The notes beneath the pieces were generated by a model that searched no databases, was not told where the DNA came from, and saw nothing but the letters and a program-made list of their open reading frames with translations. 32,000 nt of DNA from assembly GCA_030600695.1 (NCBI GenBank), contig JAUVLO010000004.1, forward strand, positions 1-32,000, in the 5' to 3' direction. Of the stretch, positions 607 to 27,688 are shown piece after piece. Numbering within the stretch: position 1 is the stretch's first letter; each line of letters begins with the position of its first letter. This DNA comes from Methanosarcinales archaeon. GTDB taxonomy: Archaea > Halobacteriota > Methanosarcinia > Methanosarcinales > Methanocomedenaceae. The position numbers and the translations under genes were made by a program.

Positions 607-651
607 TCCCAAATATAAAAGGGACACTGTATCATATTTCAGTTTTGTTCA

Positions 652-763
652 CGTATAGGAAATTATAAACGCATTTCGATATCGATATAGTTAATTTTTA
701 TTGGTCTCAATCAAATCTTTTGACAGGATTTACAGGATTGGAACGTATCCTGTCAATCCTGTC
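652..763 (+). repeat. E1 repeat: conserved ~70-nt flank with the tcgatatcga palindrome, plus an ACAGGAT-unit hairpin (722-763)
   Basis: gtataggaaattataaacgcatttcgatatcgatatag...tcaatcaaatcttttgacaggatttacaggat-tggaacgt-atcctgtcaatcctgtc. An inverted copy lies at 11333-11469. Confidence 0.8.
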
Positions 764-814
764 TAAAATTTCCAATTTATTGAGATATGGATTTCACGTT
801 GCATCGTCTGTGCA

Positions 815-980
815 TATTGAATAGTCGCCGCCGCCAACAGTTGAAATATATATTCTGTGTAATTTTTAAGACGCATAGTACACAGAGACACACAGAGCGT
901 TTTTTCCCATACTCTGCGTACTTCTGCGCACTCTGCGGTTAATATCGAATTGATTCCAGGCCCTATTGGTTCTTTCAATC
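815..980 (-). repeat. A-type repeat, diverged copy A0, with a CGCAGAG-unit hairpin (881-938)
   Basis: Shares tgaatagt...gccgccgcc..gttgaaatatatat...hairpin...ttctttcaatc with copies A and B, but the hairpin units differ (cacagag/ctctgcg). Confidence 0.65.
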
Positions 981-981
981 A

Positions 982-1050
982 CCCTGCCACCGCAGCCCGC
1001 AAGGGCGGCAGTGTGGCAGCCAGCCTTATGGATTCGTGCGAGTTTGGAAC
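982..1050 (+). repeat. F repeat copy 1 (GC-rich imperfect hairpin module)
   Basis: ccctgccaccgcagcccgcaagggcggcagtgtggcagccagccttatggattcg...ttggaac. The second copy is at 5627-5695. Confidence 0.75.
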
Positions 1051-1175
1051 CGCAGATAAACGCGGATGAACGCAGATATTATAGCTAAAATTTGATTATA
1101 TTTAAATTTACACTGCATAATTATAATTAAAACCCACAATCGCCGTTATCTGTGTTCATCTGTGTTCATCTGTGG
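1050..1175 (+). repeat. Inverted 28-nt stuttered arms (CGCAGAT units) flanking a 70-nt AT-rich spacer
   Basis: Arms are ccgcagataaacgcggatgaacgcagat (1050-1077) and atctgtgttcatctgtgttcatctgtgg (1148-1175). By hand there are 23 Watson-Crick pairs, 4 G:T pairs and 1 mismatch. Confidence 0.8.
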
Positions 1176-1243
1176 TTAATACTGAAATAAATATAGTTGG
1201 CGTCCTTTCTGCACTAACCCACTCCTAAACTGATGCCTTCGTA

Positions 1244-1439
1244 CGGGTGCCCATGCGCTGAGTGTGGGGCACGGGAGTGAATAGTAGAGTGTGCTGCCAG
1301 CAGCGGCTATGGCTGTGAAAATATATAATTTATGAAATACTGTACAGCAAAGCACGCAAAGTAAAGGGCACAACGTCTTTGCGAACTTCGCGCTCTTTGC
1401 AGTGAAACACTTAACGGCACCCTTCAATCTGCATGCCTC
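1244..1439 (-). repeat. A-type repeat copy A, with a GCAAAG-unit hairpin (1347-1400)
   Basis: Near-identical to 2254-2469: cgggtgcccatgcgctgagtgtggggcacgggagtgaat...gaaaatatataatttatgaaatactg...gtctttgcgaacttcgcgctctttgc...gcacccttcaatctgc. Confidence 0.85.
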
Positions 1440-1605
1440 GGTGGTTAATATTGAAATGATTGCCAGCCACAGTCCCATTATATGCTCTCACGCCCCCCTC
1501 CTGTGCTGGTGCCTGGATGCGGGGCATATGCGCTGGACGCGTAGATTGGGATTTAATAATAGTGGGATCCCCCGCGCTAAAGCGTGCGTTGATCAGTAAA
1601 AAAAG

Positions 1606-1863
1606 TCAATAGACGTTTCCACGAACTCCGATATCTTCAATAATTACTGTATTTTTATCACTCTCTATTCTATAGACGATTCTATACTTCCCAACGCGCA
1701 AACGAAACTTGCCCGCCAATTCCCCTTTTAACATTTTAATGTTCTTACCGGAAGCAGGTTTTTCCAGTAATGTTTCAATTGCACGATTAATTCTCGCTGT
1801 ATTTTTATCATCGAGTTTGTTATAGAATTTAACAACTCGATCGTGAAGAAGGATTTCATACAT
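1606..1863 (-). CDS. Type II toxin, RelE/ParE family
   Basis: 85 aa with ...KMLKGELAGKFRLRVGKYRIVYRIESDKNTVIIEDIGVRGNVY, the characteristic RelE/ParE C-terminal pattern. It overlaps the upstream small ORF by 8 nt. An oligo-T run follows the stop on the minus strand. Confidence 0.8.
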   Translation of the reverse strand: MYEILLHDRVVKFYNKLDDKNTARINRAIETLLEKPASGKNIKMLKGELAGKFRLRVGKYRIVYRIESDKNTVIIEDIGVRGNVY

Positions 1864-2101
1864 GGCGTTTCACTTTGTTCCATGAAGTGAATTCCTGCAT
1901 TTTACCCATCTCCCATGCCTGATCAGCAGTTCTAATATTTCGCATTGACTCTTCATCAGCAAGAATTTCAAGGGTAGCATCAAGTTCTTCTTTTTGTTCG
2001 AGATATTCGATAAAATCGAGAACTACTTTTAATCTATCAGGTGATAAGACATCCAACTTTTCAATTGCTTTTCTTTTATAATTAACTACATGAACTGCCA
2101 T
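1856..2101 (-). CDS. Putative antitoxin partner of the RelE-family toxin
   Basis: 81-aa ORF translationally coupled to the toxin by a 4-codon-scale overlap, in the usual antitoxin-first order. No family signature recognised by eye. Confidence 0.6.
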   Translation of the reverse strand: MAVHVVNYKRKAIEKLDVLSPDRLKVVLDFIEYLEQKEELDATLEILADEESMRNIRTADQAWEMGKMQEFTSWNKVKRHV

Positions 2102-2253
2102 TATCTTGCCTCCTGTTATAGAAACTGAATTAATTAATATTAATACTATGCAATAGGTTGCCTCATAATCTCATTAAAGTGAGAACTTTGCCACCAACTT
2201 CCATTATGTACGATATATCTGCCCGACCATAGACGGTCTGGTTTGCCTCCCTG

Positions 2254-2469
2254 CGGGTGCCCATGCGCTGAGTGTGGGGCACGGGAGTGAATTGTGGAAT
2301 GTGCTGCCGGCGGCGGCCATGGCTGTTGAAATATATAATTTATGAAATACTGCACCGCAAAGCACGCAAAGGACGCAAAGTTAAGGTCACAACGTCTTTG
2401 CGAACTTCGCGCTCTTTGCGGTGAAACAATCAACAGCACCCTTCAATCTGCGTGTATCTGCATGCCTCT
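2254..2469 (-). repeat. A-type repeat copy B, with a GCAAAG-unit hairpin (2353-2423)
   Basis: Direct-orientation copy of 1244-1439 on the other side of the relE cassette. The hairpin has 3 units per arm: caccgcaaagcacgcaaaggacgcaaag / ctttgcgaacttcgcgctctttgcggtg. Confidence 0.85.
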
Positions 2470-2776
2470 GCGTTTTATGCTACCCAGCCTTGGCCCGTTC
2501 CCCCCACTTCTCCACTCTCCCGCCGCCCGTCATTCTGTATTTGTCCACATCTCAAAACATATAGATCAAGCTTAAATAGATTTATATATAATTCATACAT
2601 ATGAGTATAATGATGATTGTGGGCGGGTACAATTTTTATAACTAACCCCCACTCCCAAACCCCCGCTCACAAATTCATCATTTGTGGAACTAATGAAGTG
2701 GTGTTTTTTTAAACCATGGATTGTTGTGATATTCCTGATTGCCAACTTTAGTAAACCAGATAATGTCTATGTTGCA

Positions 2777-4947: not shown

Positions 4948-5098
4948 CTGCCGGGTGCCCATCTCGCTCAACTCCGCCCCCGGCCCCCTTGTTCACGGCA
5001 TACAGGGCGGGCTGGCAGGCGTTTTTGTGGTGCCTTGTGTATGCATGGGTGTCAGTGCCCGGACCTCATATTCTACTGTAGAACGATGGGGATTCATG
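4948..5098 (+). repeat. C-type repeat copy C
   Basis: ctgccgggtgcccatctcgct...gggctggcaggcg...tgcatgggtgtcagtgcccggacctca...acgatgggg. The partner copy is at 5726-5868. Confidence 0.7.
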
Positions 5099-5165
5099 TT
5101 CTGTTGGTTGGTGGGGGGGCAGATGTCGCCATATTTATATCTAAAAACAACTAATTAATTGCAAG

Positions 5166-5375
5166 GTGAAAATATTGATTTTTAAGGTAGTTCTGGAATT
5201 AGCTGAAGAGGGTGGCTATGTAGTATATGTACCTTCTCTTCCCGGATGTATTTCTGAAGGTGATAGTAAAGAAGAAGCACTAGAGAACATCAAAGAGGCT
5301 ATAGAACTATATTTGGAACCAACCGAAAATCCTGTTTTAGCTTACAGTGCCGAACTCGCTGAAGTTGCTGTCTAG
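5166..5375 (+). CDS. hicB: HicB-family antitoxin
   Basis: 69 aa with ...EEGGYVVYVPSLPGCISEGDSKEEALENIKEAIELYLE, a classic HicB N-terminal fold signature. GTG start, TAG stop. Confidence 0.8.
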   Translation: MKILIFKVVLELAEEGGYVVYVPSLPGCISEGDSKEEALENIKEAIELYLEPTENPVLAYSAELAEVAV

Positions 5376-5388
5376 GCAGGTATGCCAA

Positions 5389-5613
5389 ATGAAGTTACCA
5401 GTCGTTTCAGGCGAGAAGGCAATTAAGGCATTTTTAAATGCTGGTTTTGTAAAAGTCAGGCAGCGTGGAAGCCATGTAAGATTGGAAAAGATTGAAGGTA
5501 ATGATATAATTAAACTTACAGTTCCATTACATAATCCAATGAAGAAAGGGACTCTGAGCAGATTAATTAAAGATGCTGGTTTAACAATCGATGAATTTGT
5601 TAATCTGTTGTGA
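5389..5613 (+). CDS. hicA: HicA-family mRNA interferase toxin
   Basis: MKLPVVSGEKAIKAFLNAGFVKVRQRGSHVRLEK... is a typical HicA. The ATG at 5389 is in frame with track ORF 5347..5613. Confidence 0.8.
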   Translation: MKLPVVSGEKAIKAFLNAGFVKVRQRGSHVRLEKIEGNDIIKLTVPLHNPMKKGTLSRLIKDAGLTIDEFVNLL

Positions 5614-5626
5614 TTTTATACCCTAC

Positions 5627-5695
5627 CCCTGCCACCGCAGCCCTTCAGGGGCAGCAGGTGGCAGCCAACCTTGTTGATTCGAATAAGCCTTGAAC
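5627..5695 (+). repeat. F repeat copy 2
   Basis: ccctgccaccgcagcccttcaggggcagcaggtggcagccaaccttgttgattcgaataagccttgaac. Confidence 0.75.
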
Positions 5696-5725
5696 TTATT
5701 CCGCCCCCTCTATTCTTCGGCTTTC

Positions 5726-5868
5726 CTGCCGCCCATCTCGCTGCGCCCTACCCTGGCGTTCATCTGGCATGCAGAACGGGCTGGCTGGCGCTTTGCTTTA
5801 ATAGTGTCTCGTGGATGCATGGGTGTCAGTGTCCGGACCTCACTCTACCGTGGGACGATGAGTCTTGG
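5726..5868 (+). repeat. C-type repeat copy D
   Basis: ctgccgcccatctcgct...gggctggctggcg...tgcatgggtgtcagtgtccggacctca...acgatgag. Same orientation as copy C, with several indels (roughly 70-75 percent similarity by eye). Confidence 0.7.
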
Positions 5869-5940
5869 TCTAAGAAGTTCCGCAGTACTGGCAAACCCAT
5901 AGCATATGGTCGGAAAATAAGAGTATAACAAAATATTAAG

Positions 5941-6195: not shown

Positions 6196-6543
6196 CTACA
6201 CCAGTTTCAACTTGCCCACGACCTTGTCCAGTTTCTCAACAGGTCCGGGCCCGATACCCAGTACAGTAACGGTCCCAGGTGGTATCTGGGTAAGTCCGGC
6301 ATCAGTGATAAGGGCAGTAGACAGCCCTTCCCTGCGTGCCGACTCCTTCAACAGAAATAGGTCCTGCAGCGTGCCGGTCTTAAGTACGACCTTCTTCTGC
6401 CCGTCCTTCATCCAGGAATCACGTTCCTTCTTATCAGCAAAATCAGAGGCGGTTACGGCTGCATGTGCCACCTGTACAGCCAGCTTGCCTTTTGAAAGTT
6501 TAAGGTCATCACGGGTTACGATACACTGCTTGTATTCAGTCAT
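6196..6543 (-). CDS. pth2: Archaeal-type peptidyl-tRNA hydrolase (Pth2)
   Basis: MTEYKQCIVTRDDLKLSKGKLAVQVAHAAV...KVVLK...ITDAG.T.I..GT.TVLGIGP is the PTH2 family pattern. I prefer the start at 6543. Confidence 0.85.
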   Translation of the reverse strand: MTEYKQCIVTRDDLKLSKGKLAVQVAHAAVTASDFADKKERDSWMKDGQKKVVLKTGTLQDLFLLKESARREGLSTALITDAGLTQIPPGTVTVLGIGPGPVEKLDKVVGKLKLV

Positions 6544-7279
6544 TGATGAGCATCCCATCCTTATCGAATTTCAATGAGTTCGTAGTTCGCTGGTGCCATT
6601 CTTCACCAAGCTTCAAGGCTTCATCCCTGTTGAAATCACCTATCTCCACATCCTCGTCAGTGAATCCGGATATGGACGACATAGGTATGTACAGTTTCTC
6701 AGCCCCGTGCTTGAACACAAGATTCCCGGCATCAATGGAAATAGTCTCACCGATCCTCTGCCCGTGCTGCACCACGAACTTGCAGAGTATGTCCTGTTTT
6801 GATATGGGTTTTTCCTCATCCTGCCCCTGGTCGGGTGGTTGGGATTGAGGAGCTCTTAGTGGTTCGGCAGGTTGGGGTTGAGGGGCTTTTATTGGTGCGG
6901 CAGGTTCACCTGGCACTTCTTTTTCGGCCTGCGCCTTTGATGGAACCGGATGGGGTATGGACATCGAGTGCCAGTCCAGATCGTCATGTTTGTGTTCCCA
7001 TTTGCTGCCCACCTGCCTGCTCTGTTTTGTTTGATTTTCATCCTTCCCCGGGCTACCGGGTGCTGCCTCTGCACCTACACTTTTCTGTTCAACCGCAGAA
7101 CCCTGGGCAGAATGCACATTCCCGGCAGCTACTACTGGCTTTTTGTCTTCCCCGGCAACTACCACCGGCTTCTTATCTTCACCGGTAGTTGCTACCTGCT
7201 TCTTATCTTTCCCGGCAGCACCGGAATCATCTGTCCCACATCGCCCTATTAGTTTGTTGAAAGTGTCTTTAAATCCCAT
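6536..7279 (-). CDS. Hypothetical protein with a disordered repeat-rich N-terminal two-thirds and a compact C-terminal domain
   Basis: 247 aa. Contains 10-aa tandem repeats GKDKKQVATT/GEDKKPVVVA/GEDKKPVVAA and a PQ-rich stretch. The C-terminal ~85 aa (KFVVQHGQRIGETISIDAGNLVFKHG...) looks globular. Lies in an apparent operon with pth2. Confidence 0.6.
   Translation of the reverse strand: MGFKDTFNKLIGRCGTDDSGAAGKDKKQVATTGEDKKPVVVAGEDKKPVVAAGNVHSAQGSAVEQKSVGAEAAPGSPGKDENQTKQSRQVGSKWEHKHDDLDWHSMSIPHPVPSKAQAEKEVPGEPAAPIKAPQPQPAEPLRAPQSQPPDQGQDEEKPISKQDILCKFVVQHGQRIGETISIDAGNLVFKHGAEKLYIPMSSISGFTDEDVEIGDFNRDEALKLGEEWHQRTTNSLKFDKDGMLIND
7121..7210. repeat. In-gene tandem repeat, 3 x 30 nt
   Basis: cccggcagctactactggctttttgtcttc / cccggcaactaccaccggcttcttatcttc / accggtagttgctacctgcttcttatcttt. 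These encode the 10-aa repeats of the 6536..7279 protein. Confidence 0.85.
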
Positions 7280-8437: not shown

Positions 8438-8535
8438 GTCTTGTTCTTCACCGGATTATATTTTCATTCTGTATATAGTAGCGTCATAACATAATATAAT
8501 AATGTTTATAGGTGGTAAGACCACAGAGAAAAAAT

Positions 8536-9492
8536 ATGGATATTTCAGATCATCCAAAGGTGCGTCTCAGGGATTTTATTATTACCAGGGAAGGGTGGAT
8601 ATTCTCATCAGCCGATTACCACCACCCTGAAGGTGTCAGGGGCGTGCTGCGCTATGTACCTGACCCTGAAGGCGAGCGTACAGACGGCACCCGGAATTAC
8701 CGGAAATACGATTTTGACGAAGCATATGATTACATGGAGCTCCACAAGCCAGAGTGGGTGCAGGATGTCCACATCATACCATGGGACCAGGTCGAGCGGG
8801 TGTTGAGCCCCACGGACCGACTGGCAGGGATATGGCGCTCTGACCCAAGGATCGAAGAGATAACCAGGACCCTGCTGGAGGCTGGGATTCCCATGGACAG
8901 TATAGGAATAACAGGGTCATTCCTGCCCGGCCTGCAGATAAGTGTTTCCGACATTGATCTTGTGGTATATGGTCCCATGTGGTTCAGGGCCAGGGATATA
9001 ATAGCCAGGGCAAAGGACGATCCCCACAGCAGCATCGAGCACCTGGATGAGGGGATGTGGGAGCGTATCTACAATAAGCGAATTCCTGAGATCAGTTTTG
9101 AGGAGTTCAAACTCCATGAGATGAGAAAGGGTAACAGGGGAATGATTGGAGATACATATTTCGATCTGCTGTTTGTCAGGGACTGGGACCAGGTCAGTGA
9201 ACCAACGGGCAGGGGTGCGGACATGGGTCATGAGACCATAGAGGCGGTGGTGACAGATTCAGAACTGGCTTTTGACAGCCCTTCGGTCTATAAGGTGGAT
9301 CATCCCGTGATCGAGTATGTGCTATCCTACACCCATACCTATGCCGGGCAGGCACTGGCAGGCGAGACCATAGAGGCCAGGGGCATGGTAGAAGAGGTGA
9401 ATGGTCACAGGCGGCTGGTCGTGGGTACCAGCAGGGAACCAAAAGGTGAATGGATACGCTCGCTGACCCTGCTTGGGTCTTCCGGACAATAG
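8536..9492 (+). CDS. Predicted nucleotidyltransferase (Pol-beta superfamily fold)
   Basis: ITGSFLPGLQISVSDIDLVVYGP is a GS...DxD NTase signature. I prefer the ATG at 8536 within track ORF 8512..9492. Confidence 0.6.
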   Translation: MDISDHPKVRLRDFIITREGWIFSSADYHHPEGVRGVLRYVPDPEGERTDGTRNYRKYDFDEAYDYMELHKPEWVQDVHIIPWDQVERVLSPTDRLAGIWRSDPRIEEITRTLLEAGIPMDSIGITGSFLPGLQISVSDIDLVVYGPMWFRARDIIARAKDDPHSSIEHLDEGMWERIYNKRIPEISFEEFKLHEMRKGNRGMIGDTYFDLLFVRDWDQVSEPTGRGADMGHETIEAVVTDSELAFDSPSVYKVDHPVIEYVLSYTHTYAGQALAGETIEARGMVEEVNGHRRLVVGTSREPKGEWIRSLTLLGSSGQ

Positions 9493-9570
9493 TAGTATAC
9501 TGAACTGTATCCTCAAAAAGAAGTGACTTTTTAATTTATTCTGGATAAATGGATCGTGGCAAAAAAGATT

Positions 9571-9640
9571 CACCGCAGAGGACACAGAGAGGCGCAGAGA
9601 TGTGTTGTTTTTCTCTGTGTGCCTTTTTGCTCTATGCGGT
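9571..9640 (+). repeat. Decayed CGCAGAG-unit stuttered hairpin followed by an ATATATATTT box (A-type module in + sense)
   Basis: caccgcagaggacacagagaggcgcagag-atgtgttgttttt-ctctgtgtgcctttttgctctatgcggt, then ...gtgatatatattttatcc about 60 nt downstream. Confidence 0.6.
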
Positions 9641-9766
9641 TTTTTGAATAGTCCCAGTAAATAATAAAAAGTCTCGTAATTCATGGCAACAGTGATATAT
9701 ATTTTATCCACTGCCGAAATTTTCCGAGTCCTAAAGAATCGACCCGGCATCCTTTCATTTTAATAA

Positions 9767-10221: not shown

Positions 10222-10827
10222 TTAGTATTCAAGCATGACTTTTGCTTTTATTTGAGCTACATCTTGTTCTATCATTGAAATCCTCTCATCAAAATGAGAC
10301 CTAAAATCATCTTTAGTGGAGCGGATTTCGGATGTTATTTCTATTCTGTTTTGATCGATTTTACCACTAAGATTATCTCCAAGATGATCGATCTTACCAC
10401 CAAGATAATCGATCTTACCACCAAGATTATCTCCAAGATAATCGATCTTACCACCAACTCCATCGATTTTTTGGCTGAGATTTGAGTTCATTTCTCTCAT
10501 ATATCTCACTGCTGCATCCATTCTTTCGTAAGTTGCTGTGGTCAGGTCTTCTTCTCTAATAACATCAAATGTTCTATACTCACCAGTTGGCTTTTTATAA
10601 ACCACGTCAATTTTTTCTACGCGTATAGGGTACTGAGTAATATTAATTTTTTCAAGCAATTCTTTGATATCGTCTTCTTTCCCTTCTGAGATAATCTGCA
10701 CTGTCCCGTCATCAAGATTTTTAACATATCCATTAAGATTCAGATTAAAAGCGATCTCATCAATGAAATCTCTGAAACCTGCTTTCTGAACTCTACCGTA
10801 TACTATGATCTCTGCACGTTTTTCCAT
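10222..10827 (-). CDS. Acylphosphatase-like domain fused to a 7/11-residue tandem-repeat and coiled-coil C-terminal region
   Basis: The N-terminus AEIIVYGRVQKAGFRDFIDEIAFNLNLNGYVKNLDDGTVQIISEG is the acylphosphatase signature. The C-terminus holds repeats GVGGKID/YLGDNLGGKID/YLGGKID/HLGDNLSGKID. Confidence 0.75.
   Translation of the reverse strand: MEKRAEIIVYGRVQKAGFRDFIDEIAFNLNLNGYVKNLDDGTVQIISEGKEDDIKELLEKINITQYPIRVEKIDVVYKKPTGEYRTFDVIREEDLTTATYERMDAAVRYMREMNSNLSQKIDGVGGKIDYLGDNLGGKIDYLGGKIDHLGDNLSGKIDQNRIEITSEIRSTKDDFRSHFDERISMIEQDVAQIKAKVMLEY
10354..10470. repeat. In-gene tandem repeat with alternating 33-nt and 21-nt units
   Basis: atcgattttaccactaagattatctccaagatg / atcgatcttaccaccaagata / atcgatcttaccaccaagattatctccaagata / atcgatcttaccaccaactcc. 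Confidence 0.9.
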
Positions 10828-11332: not shown

Positions 11333-11469
11333 TTACAGGATGCACAGGATGCACAGGATGAGGATGTCAACCAATATCCTGTAAATCCCGTAAATCCTGT
11401 CTGAAGATTTGATTGAATTTAAGAAAATTACTTATATCGATATCGAAATGCGTTTATACTTTCCTATAC
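11333..11469 (-). repeat. E1 repeat, inverted copy, with an ACAGGAT-unit hairpin (11335-11401)
   Basis: The reverse complement reads tgtataggaaagtataaacgcatttcgatatcgatataagtaattttc...tcaatcaaatcttcagacaggatttacgggatttacaggat... Confidence 0.8.
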
Positions 11470-11676
11470 ATTAAATAAAATTATAAATAAATGAATTCTT
11501 GAGATTTGCAGCTATTCCGCAATCAGGCAATTTTCTTAAAAACCATTGACCTTCTATAAAATTAGCACTCAAAATGTTCTTTAGAGACAACATTCATCCA
11601 GGCAAGTAGTCACTCGTTGACGATTATAATTGTCCGGATGCGTTTTGAACACAAAAATCAAGAAAAACTGGCTAAC

Positions 11677-13625: not shown

Positions 13626-14102
13626 CTATAAAAGATCTAACAAATCATCCACAGTAATTATATCAACATTAATTAGTTCATAAACTCGTTCTTTAACGTT
13701 AAGAAGTGATTTCACATCCATAGTAACAAGCGGTATTGCATAATGATGTGCAAGTGCGACTATAGGTGCATCTTTTGGCTCTATTCTAAGTGCTTAGGCC
13801 AGTGCTATGTTTTCTTCCCTCCCTTTCACTTCTCTTAATACGGTTTTATCAAAGTCCAGTGGTGTGAATGTCGTTTTTACATAAGGTTCTCTAAATAAAG
13901 ACCAAATTGCAGTTTGGAGCAGATTGATATCCTTTCCGCTTTTGTGCCCTTCAAAAATGACATTATCACTAATTTCTTTTGCCAGATATGCAGAAATTAT
14001 TGGCTTGACATCTCCATTAAATATTTTTTCTAAAATATAGGTACATTTAGCGTCAGTTCTTAGAAATGCATGGATCCAGACACATGAATCTATTACAATC
14101 AT
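13626..14102 (-). pseudogene. vapC: VapC-type PIN-domain toxin interrupted by an in-frame TAA (13794-13796)
   Basis: Track ORF 13794..14102 (MIVIDSCVWI...) stops at TAA. The same frame continues for 55 codons: ALRIEPKDAPIVALAHHYAIPLVTMDVKSLL...DLL*. That segment carries the third and fourth conserved PIN acidic positions. Confidence 0.7.
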
Positions 14103-14470
14103 GCAGTTTCCTGCAACTCTTTATAGGCTTTTGCATATTTACTTTCTACTTCATTTTTCGTAATCTGTATAGATCTATCAATGGATTCTTTTGTATTTTC
14201 AGATCCAAGAGAGGATAGAATTTTCAGTGCTTCACTGGTTTTCATGGGTTTTTTCCATGCATTGAGCATGATTTTTTTCGTGTCCAGCGTTTCTTTGAAA
14301 AGATCAGATTTTAGATTATAGATGCTTAAGTCTTCTAAATAAGACAGGATTGCTTTTTTGACAAAATTCTCTCTGCTCTTTGTGGATTTTGATTGTATCG
14401 TTCTATCAATCTTGTGGGCTAAAAATTCGCCGATGTTAACTTTCGCTGCAGTTTCTGACATCCATATCAC
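14099..14470 (-). CDS. Putative VapB-type antitoxin (possible ribbon-helix-helix N-terminus)
   Basis: 123-aa ORF overlapping the PIN gene start by 4 nt. ...SRENFVKKAILSYLEDL resembles CopG/RHH helices. Confidence 0.55.
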   Translation of the reverse strand: MIWMSETAAKVNIGEFLAHKIDRTIQSKSTKSRENFVKKAILSYLEDLSIYNLKSDLFKETLDTKKIMLNAWKKPMKTSEALKILSSLGSENTKESIDRSIQITKNEVESKYAKAYKELQETA

Positions 14471-19705: not shown

Positions 19706-19745
19706 TAGTATTTACTAGTATTTATTAGTATTTACTAGTATTTAA
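19706..19745. repeat. Tandem repeat, 4 x 10 nt
   Basis: tagtatttac tagtatttat tagtatttac tagtatttaa, about 95 nt downstream of the orphan gene. Confidence 0.85.
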
Positions 19746-27369: not shown

Positions 27370-27417
27370 ATATTTGCGGCACAGTTCCAAAATCCAGTGA
27401 TATCAACAATTATATTA

Positions 27418-27627
27418 GACGCAGATTAACGCTGATTAACGCAGATGCAGTATCCACTTTAAATCTAAGGGTAATTTAAAAATTATTAGACAGGATTAAC
27501 AGGATCGACAGGATATACCGCAACGCAACATCCTGTAAATTCTGTAAATCCGGTCAAAATACCATGCTTTTTGAAGTGGATACCAGATGCAACCTTAAAT
27601 CAGCGTAAATCTGCGTGAATCAGCGTC
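27418..27627 (+). repeat. Nested stuttered hairpins: outer CGCAGAT/CGCTGAT arms enclosing an inner ACAGGAT hairpin (27489-27555)
   Basis: Outer arms are gacgcagattaacgctgattaacgcagat and aaatcagcgtaaatctgcgtgaatcagcgtc. The inner hairpin is gacaggattaacaggatcgacaggatat-accgcaacgcaac-atcctgtaaattctgtaaatccggtc. Confidence 0.8.
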
Positions 27628-27688
27628 TTGAAAATAACTGGAAAATGGGACAGTGTCGATATTTGCAAGGAAAAGGAAGTAAAATATA

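Follow-up and report, generated by a model that had tools for sequence, protein, structure and literature searches.

The stretch of DNA analyzed in this work, hereafter the window, comprises 32,000 nucleotides (positions 1 to 32,000 of contig JAUVLO010000004.1, assembly GCA_030600695.1, Methanosarcinales archaeon), and our attention was focused on an array of non-coding repeat modules near its left end, which encloses a small toxin–antitoxin (TA) operon. Besides housekeeping enzymes and tRNA-Gly, the window, a segment of an archaeal chromosome, encodes an archaeal A24 prepilin peptidase and an archaeal-type dihydroneopterin aldolase; proteins closely homologous to those of the window carry the NCBI label ANME-2 cluster archaeon (ANME, anaerobic methanotrophic archaea). 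A first-pass annotation of the window described three same-orientation copies of one element (A0, A and B), with the operon lying between A and B, and likened this arrangement to the cassette arrays of chromosomal integrons. The features are collected in Table 1; other loci used for comparison are designated by L numbers.

Repeat modules and the cassette between them

Copies A (1234-1450) and B (2244-2478) form a pair of direct repeats, the similarity of which becomes fainter toward the ends at about 1450 and 2478. In one gapped alignment they share 86% identity over 211 nt (E=1e-58), and the ungapped blocks 1234-1361/2244-2371 and 1347-1435/2366-2454 reach 90% and 91%, respectively, which bears out their description as near-identical copies of the same orientation. 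The strings named by the first-pass annotation were found in both copies, with the exception of gaaatatataat, the leading base of which is exact in B only. The internal hairpin ascribed to each copy turned out to be uneven: when folded as DNA, it is strong in B (z=-4.7), but degraded in A (-0.5), where only two 5' units are present because one of them has been lost, and weak in A0 (-1.3).

The relation of A0 (827-942) to the other two copies is more distant, as it aligns with B (2310-2425) at 66% identity over 116 nt (E=7e-5). The TATA-like box and the GGTTAAT end are common to all three, but the hairpin of A0 (CACAGAG/CTCTGCG) is a different one; A0 is a paralogous sister module (module 1 below) rather than a decayed copy of A/B. 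Modules of this type are also present in L119 and L057. Between A0 and A there are indeed only repeats, namely one further module (module 2, 961-1200). Its CGCAGAT/ATCTGTG hairpin, which has an AT-rich loop of ~70 nt, reaches z=-4.8 (1046-1176), and its GC-rich hairpin was found again further along the window (5627-5681) as well as at over 25 other loci. The string GGTTAATAYYGAA stands at the end of all three modules (3 matches versus 0.2 expected). Since the module order 1-2-3 (window 815-1460) is kept also in L119 (12624-13200) and in L044, the true repeat is a mosaic of modules.

The coding content of the interval between A and B was confirmed, by Pfam search and by a scan of open reading frames (ORFs), to consist of two TA genes only. 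This pair (1606-2101), made up of a toxin of the ParE/RelE family and an overlapping small antitoxin gene upstream of it, is predicted to be a type II TA operon. The window region 1577-2256 shows 88.6% nucleotide identity to positions 89-764 of L161 (89% for the toxin), where the cassette is flanked by unrelated genes with no repeat nearby and where homology begins at window position 1577; in L162 and L163 a homologous cassette occurs in yet another context. The repeat-free cassette of L161 implies that the ~680-bp unit is self-contained and moves without the repeats, and in the window it seems to have been inserted into the head of a module. A more diverged cassette, the toxin of which is 80% identical, is found in L164; it is bracketed by two same-orientation modules consisting of head and AT box, opposite to the operon, as in the window.

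In the public collection, five contigs encode the identical toxin (L001-L005), all of them being 0.7-1.0 kb long and none reaching 1.1 kb, and at least one of these (L002) begins and ends within the repeats. The repeat family probably contributes to the fragmentation of ANME-2 assemblies, and mis-binning may result as well, as bins assigned to Anaerohalosphaeraceae and Methanococcoides contain 1-kb repeat contigs.

At the left edge of the array lies a ~130-nt element of a separate repeat family. As a side observation, inverted copies of a ~105-nt element (634-739 and 11384-11488, 81-83% identity, 10.6 kb apart) are attached to ACAGGAT hairpins and could mediate inversion. A 10.7-kb inversion between them relative to L159 was considered and discarded, the supposed orthologs being 37% identical or unrelated.

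Table 1. Positions of the repeat modules, cassettes and associated elements in the window
Feature	Position	Strand	Evidence and details
~130-nt element, separate repeat family, left edge of the array	650..775	+	ends in ACAGGAT/ATCCTGT hairpin 716-769, z=-6.4; further copy, inverted, at 11384-11488 (81-83%)
Module 1 (A0)	790..960	+	partial head; BRE/TATA-like box 843-854 (BRE, transcription factor B recognition element); CACAGAG/CTCTGCG periodic hairpin 872-935; GGTTAAT end 937-949
Module 2	961..1200	+	GC-rich hairpin CCCTGCCACC..GGCAGCC 982-1036; CGCAGAT/ATCTGTG hairpin 1049-1173; GGTTAAT 1174-1186
Module 3 (copy A)	1201..1468	+	nhmmer 224 bits; A/B alignments
Parts of copy A	head 1234-1310; TATA-like box 1318-1329; CGCAAAG/CTTTGCG hairpin 1344-1402; tail GGTTAAT 1443-1455	+	
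Truncated head of a further module	1469..1576	+	1427-1562 vs 1158-1287 at 64%; interrupted by the TA cassette
TA cassette, ~680 bp	1577..2256	-	AT-rich promoter region of its own, antitoxin, toxin, ~30-nt 3' tail
ParE/RelE toxin gene	1606-1863	-	PF05016 ParE_toxin E=5.6e-10; PF15781 E=4.2e-8
Putative antitoxin, 81 aa	1856-2101	-	overlaps the toxin gene by 8 nt; weak DUF2281 match
Copy B, complete module	2244..2490	+	nhmmer 242 bits; alignments; hairpin z=-4.7
Parts of copy B	head; TATA-like box 2328-2339; three-unit CGCAAAG/CTTTGCG hairpin 2353-2423; tail	+	
C-rich spacer closing the array	2491..2566	+	variable region ends here on the right; homology to L045 (ortholog locus, 92%) stops exactly at 2566/2567
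Left copy of the HicAB-flanking direct repeat	4972..5088	+	72% to 5743-5860 over 120 nt, E=7e-14
HicB/HicA operon	5166-5613		Pfam; adjoins tRNA-Gly
Module-2 GC hairpin copy (5627-5681), then right direct-repeat copy (5743-5860)	5627..5860	+	directly after hicA

Anatomy, conservation and distribution of the repeat unit

In a scan with a 21-base core pattern, the full composite element was met among the searched genomes in Methanosarcinales/ANME-2 assemblies only, and a second pattern recovered 75 loci from metagenomes. A hidden Markov model (HMM) of the nhmmer type, built from 14 copies and searched over 0.94 Mb, gave 218 matches; 88 of these are near-full, and 44 remain once redundancy is removed. 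The units are intergenic and mostly solitary, and they may point either way with respect to genes; in places they line up head-to-tail in arrays of the same orientation. Adjacent copies (less than 3.5 kb apart) are co-oriented in 30 of 32 pairs, corresponding roughly to 9 of 11 non-redundant arrays, and many units abut directly with no cargo between them. A virus-borne nature of the composite element was rejected, as its core had no matches in IMG/VR.

The 44 non-redundant copies, all from other genomes, were aligned (mean identity 63%), and the unit of ~220-250 nt could be divided into four parts: a GC-rich variable head, an AT box, the heptamer arms, which in most cases pair into a hairpin, and a tail with GGTTAAT. 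The BRE/TATA-like AT box, GTTAAAATATATAATTTATGAAATACTGCAC, is nearly invariant in these copies and precedes the hairpin by ~25 nt, both its motif GTTAAAATATATAAT and the distance to the first hairpin base being kept almost without change. In the hairpin arms CGCAAAG occurs two or three times and CTTTGCG three times with a spacing of ~10 nt, and the tail, GGTGAAAC...CAACCTTCAATCTGCG..., carries ATCTGCG iterons in addition to GGTTAAT. According to the entropy profile, the AT box, the loop and the 3' arm comprise the conserved core of the unit; the pattern used for retrieval covered a part of the 3' arm, and the AT box and the distal arm lay outside it. In the sister modules the head and the AT box are kept and the heptamer is replaced by CACAGAG or CGCAGAT, and some modules (L164) have direct iterons only, with no hairpin partner.

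The units could be promoter-operators or small-RNA genes, the TATA box firing a short transcript from the hairpin onward or the heptamers binding a regulator, so that an adjacent TA operon would be affected, e.g., by antisense transcripts running into the convergent ParE operon. The near-invariance of the AT box and its spacing outside the retrieval pattern, the retention of the box in sister modules that swap their heptamers (some of them, as in L164, having direct iterons only), and the fact that in 3 of 5 TA families the upstream unit points into the 3' end of the operon speak for such a function. We nevertheless consider it unlikely, as neither an Rfam match nor covariation was found, the orientation relative to genes is random, two TA families are co-oriented with the units, and most copies do not stand beside TA genes at all. 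In particular, the downstream gene lies on the opposite strand in 22 cases and on the same strand in 15, and for the upstream gene the ratio is 19/19; a portable promoter or terminator for neighbouring genes was rejected on account of this randomness. A known structured RNA was dismissed as well: with both gathering and permissive thresholds Rfam gave nothing relevant, the only match in the window being tRNA-Gly, and within 600-2800 only plant microRNA-precursor and other eukaryotic RNA families appeared below threshold, the top ones on the long hairpin. RNAalifold applied to the 44 copies yielded -4.45 kcal/mol with 9 pairs and 0 compensatory changes, that is, no conserved element-wide fold.

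The possibility of a coding repeat or a type I toxin was rejected, too. The minus-strand mini-ORF (MAAAGST.QHPRPPP...) has no start in 14 of the 44 copies and its stops are variable, the entropy by codon position being 0.91/0.70/0.94 with no clear third-position excess, and the plus-strand GTG ORF located 3' of the hairpin contains a stop in the consensus. The array resembles the long direct repeats (LDR) and the QUAD/sib repeats of E. coli type I TA systems in that direct repeats, a few hundred bp long, follow one another in tandem and each has a promoter, a putative one in the array; it differs from them in having no conserved small hydrophobic ORF.

The family seems undescribed. It has no Rfam model, a search of the accessible literature with the heptamer strings gave no relevant match, and among publications on repeats of ANME and Methanoperedens only those on Borg tandem repeats surfaced. 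Its naming and delimitation are thus of some value in themselves.

Toxin–antitoxin operons in the arrays and differences between strains

The repeat-cassette-repeat architecture proposed for the window is real, and it was found at other ANME-2 loci with other TA families. Gaps of 0.8-1.0 kb between units hold one operon each: ParE (in the window), TumE of type a, TumE of type b, DUF433/DUF5615 (PIN-like) or HicB/HicA; other gaps contain a group II intron reverse transcriptase, an aquaporin, a Bro-N protein or further repeats. Two arrays share the TumE-a cassette at 93% identity, whereas their flanking repeats are only ~80% identical. In the window itself, the HicB/HicA operon also lies between two direct repeats. 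These are ~115 nt long and differ from A/B; among the fetched loci they were met elsewhere only in L006, a contig covering the same site.

TA components account for 10 of the ~17 Pfam-annotated small proteins encoded within 500 nt of a repeat, including HepT/MNT, PIN, UPF0175 and MazE-like proteins, and for at least 6 of the ~38 encoded beyond 1.5 kb (Fisher p=0.003, or p=0.03 if four families of the far set beyond those listed were TA). These figures are based on crude ORF calls and partly redundant metagenome loci, and the families of the far set are at least those listed. The enrichment indicates a genuine association of repeats with TA operons, even if such genes are frequent throughout these genomes. 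That A and B flank an unrelated operon by coincidence or through local segmental duplication, with no general link to TA, is therefore very unlikely in our opinion. It would agree with the abundance and mostly solitary occurrence of the family, with the frequency of TA genes far from repeats and with a repeat-free TA-like pair in the window, but not with the enrichment near repeats, with the same arrangement involving at least five TA families at independent loci and again the ParE cassette in L164, or with HicAB, which in the window stands between direct repeats accompanied by a module of the family. The repeat-free pair (13797-14470) consists of a PIN_3 protein (13797-14102) and an upstream 123-aa partner.

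Comparison between strains, advised in the first-pass annotation, revealed that the number of modules varies. In place of the three modules of the window, L004 and L005 possess a single chimeric one, the head of module 1 being fused directly to the hairpin of A. They are devoid of window positions ~855-1330 (475 nt), and this indel is bounded by the common AAATATATA box, which points to unequal or illegitimate recombination or to slippage. The ~130-nt element (~650-775) is also missing from the orthologous site in both. In L104, L119 and L126 the module content between two TumE cassettes differs. The two genes that flank the array, the HD gene and the 294-aa gene, have orthologs in the relatives examined, but in each of these the neighbours differ; judging from these comparisons, the array is probably placed at a synteny breakpoint, in variable gene-poor DNA.

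Several mobile or defence-related genes were met in or near the arrays. A group II intron-type reverse transcriptase/maturase of 443 aa lies between repeat modules in L126 (1910-4206); the near-identical L070 is free of this intron, and hence the array may serve as an intron homing site. In L119 (6062-10339) and L065 (3850-5682) the TumE-containing array adjoins type III CRISPR-Cas genes (Cas10, RAMP protein; CRISPR, short palindromic repeats that are clustered and regularly interspaced), and in L119 a DDE transposase of the IS4/5 type is located between the array and these genes. This insertion sequence (IS) was considered as a master element of the family and rejected, its flanks being unrelated to the repeat. 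Being situated at breakpoints and beside type III CRISPR-Cas systems, the arrays may be hot spots of genome plasticity.

Integron-like platform, transposable element or mosaic repeat

The likeness to integron arrays (attC sites, including the Vibrio cholerae repeats, VCR; for archaea see PMC9668308) is confined to same-orientation repeats of ~100-200 nt, small accessory cassettes, TA cargo and strain variability. Already the first-pass annotation had noticed neither an integrase nor a visible attC consensus, and both observations held. The Pfam scan of all larger ORFs of the window detected no Phage_integrase, and no tyrosine recombinase was found either across the 32 kb of the window or next to five other arrays, some of which reach contig ends; the neighbours of the latter are ABC-transporter components, TrkH cation transporters, an RNase Z-like protein, type III CRISPR-Cas and the one IS4/5-type transposase. 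In the regions 600-2700 and 4960-5940, scanned on both strands, attC core sites R'' (RYYYAAC) and R' (GTTRRRY) spaced by 50-150 nt gave 0 pairs (0.46 in shuffles). This empty scan and the consensus fold devoid of covariation led us to reject an attC-like site. Moreover, the cassettes join the repeats at different places, as the junctions in HMM coordinates are 274|7, 236|39, ~145|107, 272(+85 nt)|58 and 137|55. They fall in a head, within a hairpin loop, immediately ahead of the TATA box, and at a distance of 85 nt or ~300 nt from a unit. Neither attI nor a Pc context nor a conserved bottom-strand fold is present, the cassette bears no attC-like site of its own, and units occur in tandem with no cargo. 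Considering these facts together with the repeat-free cassette of L161, the integron reading was abandoned. None of the tests performed supports it, and A and B are better regarded, as far as their sequences tell, as two copies from a modular family of non-coding repeats that is present in high copy number on ANME-2 chromosomes.

A looser version of the same idea would be a dedicated cassette platform that does without an integrase or employs an unknown recombinase, the AT box and the heptamer iterons forming the recombination site, at which TA operons would be captured and shuffled as in integrons or Xer-pdif systems. The co-orientation of 30 of 32 neighbouring units, the one operon per gap drawn from at least five TA families, the strongly conserved iteron-like core, and the homologous ParE cassette bracketed alike in L164 agree with it, and the prominence of TA operons has a parallel in archaeal integrons, where TA modules are the most common annotated cargo (10.5% of cassettes; PMC9668308). 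However, no tyrosine recombinase was found near the six arrays, their mobile genes being the IS4/IS5-type DDE transposase of L119 and the group II intron reverse transcriptase of L126, and the absence of an R''/R' pair, of a fold with covariation and of a constant junction applies here as well. Besides, many units abut with no cargo, most copies are solitary, and the cassette of L161 has no repeats, so that we rate such a platform as quite unlikely.

With the pdif modules of Acinetobacter plasmids (XerC/D) the arrays have in common small discrete modules, often TA, bounded by recombination sites and found in varied contexts. The pdif sites are 28-bp inverted pairs, whereas the repeats considered here are long, direct and heterogeneous, and no dif-like 11-6-11 site was noticed among them, although no search aimed at it was made.

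The other proposal of the first-pass annotation, transposable elements of the miniature inverted-repeat type (MITEs) that happen to flank a TA module, came closer, but the link with TA is one of enrichment and not accidental. The unit is short, devoid of ORFs, multi-copy and intergenic and occurs near TA, CRISPR-Cas and IS elements in variable regions, like the Sulfolobus MITEs SM3A and SMN1 (PMC3718332), and the hairpin-bearing element 650-775 shows presence/absence polymorphism between strains, as does the segment ~855-1330. The latter indel (~855-1330) is bounded by repeat sequence, so that recombination explains it as well as transposition does. Unlike MITEs, the unit has ends that are not inverted copies of each other, only the internal hairpin being palindromic, no target duplication was recognized at the indel between L004 and the window, and the shared orientation of neighbouring copies is not what random transposition would lead one to expect. 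Having neither terminal inverted repeats nor target duplications, the 220-nt unit is closer to a mosaic repeat of the type of bacterial interspersed mosaic elements (BIMEs) than to a classical MITE.

Like BIMEs, the unit is non-coding and extragenic, contains palindrome and linker modules in fixed orders, is amplified head-to-tail, lies between genes in either orientation and varies in copy number between strains; the recurrent module order (window, L119, L044) and the head-to-tail arrays differing between strains are what a mosaic of repetitive extragenic palindromes (REPs) displays. It differs from BIMEs in its length of 220-250 nt (five to ten times longer), in the BRE/TATA-like box, in the archaeal host and in palindromes of 55-130 nt built periodically of three heptamers spaced by 10 nt rather than a single 35-nt REP. 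REP palindromes are short (20-40 nt), bear a GTAG/CGTC tag and are associated with REP-associated tyrosine transposases (RAYT); for the units considered here no RAYT/TnpA(REP) partner was identified, although no search aimed at it was made, and to our knowledge enterobacterial BIMEs are not interleaved with TA operons.

The interpretation that we favor, with confidence only a little above even, is a BIME/MITE-like mosaic family that amplifies and recombines in variable DNA, where mobile TA operons land and stay. In such a scheme the units would multiply head-to-tail, and the arrays, presumably occupying gene-poor DNA at synteny breakpoints, would grow and shrink there by recombination. Small self-contained TA operons, moving independently of the repeats, might land in these arrays and could be retained because repeat-mediated deletion would be counter-selected (addiction); retention of this kind has been argued for Vibrio super-integrons in work cited in a passage of PMC9668308. 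The A-TA-B arrangement would then represent a TA cassette that landed in a repeat array, in the head of a module, with no dedicated site-specific recombinase being involved. A comparable joint enrichment of IS elements, MITEs, CRISPR and TA genes characterizes the hyperplastic variable region of Sulfolobus islandicus (PMC3718332).

Several observations weigh against the mosaic-family interpretation. Conservation of the unit is by far the highest in the AT box and in the 3' heptamer arm, which suggests selection on the units themselves rather than neutral selfish DNA. The co-orientation and the spacing of 0.8-1.0 kb, with one operon per gap, are more regular than a passive "junkyard" predicts, and the diverged ParE cassette of L164 again has a module on either side, the two modules being co-oriented and directed relative to the operon as they are in the window. 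No empty site, that is, a single A/B hybrid without the cassette, was found, synteny being broken in all orthologs so that none was scorable. An autonomous element or transposase with the same ends was not seen in the ~0.9 Mb of loci, although no systematic search was made. Finally, the enrichment near repeats is based on data with the limits given above, and the retention of operons by addiction is conjecture. Since co-orientation, the conserved box with iterons and the L164 bracketing are not explained by a passive model, both the cassette platform and the promoter-operator or small-RNA function are kept under consideration. Whichever applies, the ~680-bp cassette, which has defined limits and occurs both with and without the repeats, offers a concrete case of how chromosomal TA modules move and cluster, and the arrays bear on genome plasticity in ANME-2, organisms central to the methane cycle.

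Hairpins or half-hairpins of three heptamers with a spacing of ~10 nt are not restricted to A and B. In the window they occur at 716-769, 872-935, 1049-1173, 2353-2423, 9572-9645, 11335-11400 and 27405-27625, and they were also met in L008-L043 and L128-L157. The heptamers are CGCAAAG, CGCAGAT/CGCAGAG, ACAGGAT, CACAGAG and CACGGAT, often framed by AACCGC...GCGGTT. Six exact triple-periodic runs were counted in the window, five of them made of these heptamers and one an unrelated AT-rich run (19706-19743), versus ~0 in shuffles. The arm of three CTTTGCG units was also found in Anaerolineae, Desulfobacterales, Planctomycetota, Verrucomicrobia, Kiritimatiellae, Methanoperedens and 30 IMG/VR viral contigs, a few of the viral matches being coding 9-nt tandem repeats. 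A literature search returned no description of such an element class. Its presence in many bacterial phyla and viral contigs hints at a widespread class, which may be the more general lead. To combine it with the arrays into an ANME-2 cassette platform, whose co-oriented units would capture TA and defence operons near CRISPR-Cas and whose heptamer hairpin would be a pan-prokaryotic and viral recognition module, seems to us decidedly unlikely.

Among the individual hairpins of the window, a solitary one of the CGCAGAG type (9560-9650, z=-4.4), with an A-run on one side and a T-run on the other, stands in the space separating two convergent genes, 8512-9492(+) and 10222-10827(-), and looks like a bidirectional terminator. 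At 27400-27630 three palindromes are nested: outer arms CGCAGAT/ATCAGCG enclose an element GTATCCACTT...AAGTGGATAC (27450-27583), which in turn encloses an ACAGGAT hairpin. As the inner 134-nt element is 90% identical in L055 and L083, it is probably a MITE inserted in the hairpin loop. Repeats of another kind are coding: in-frame tandem repeats with start spacings of 21/12/21 nt (10354-10461) encode ...GGKIDYLGD... repeats in an acylphosphatase/DUF1664 ORF, and an in-frame tandem repeat with a 30-nt period (7121-7210) is located in the ORF 6536-7279.

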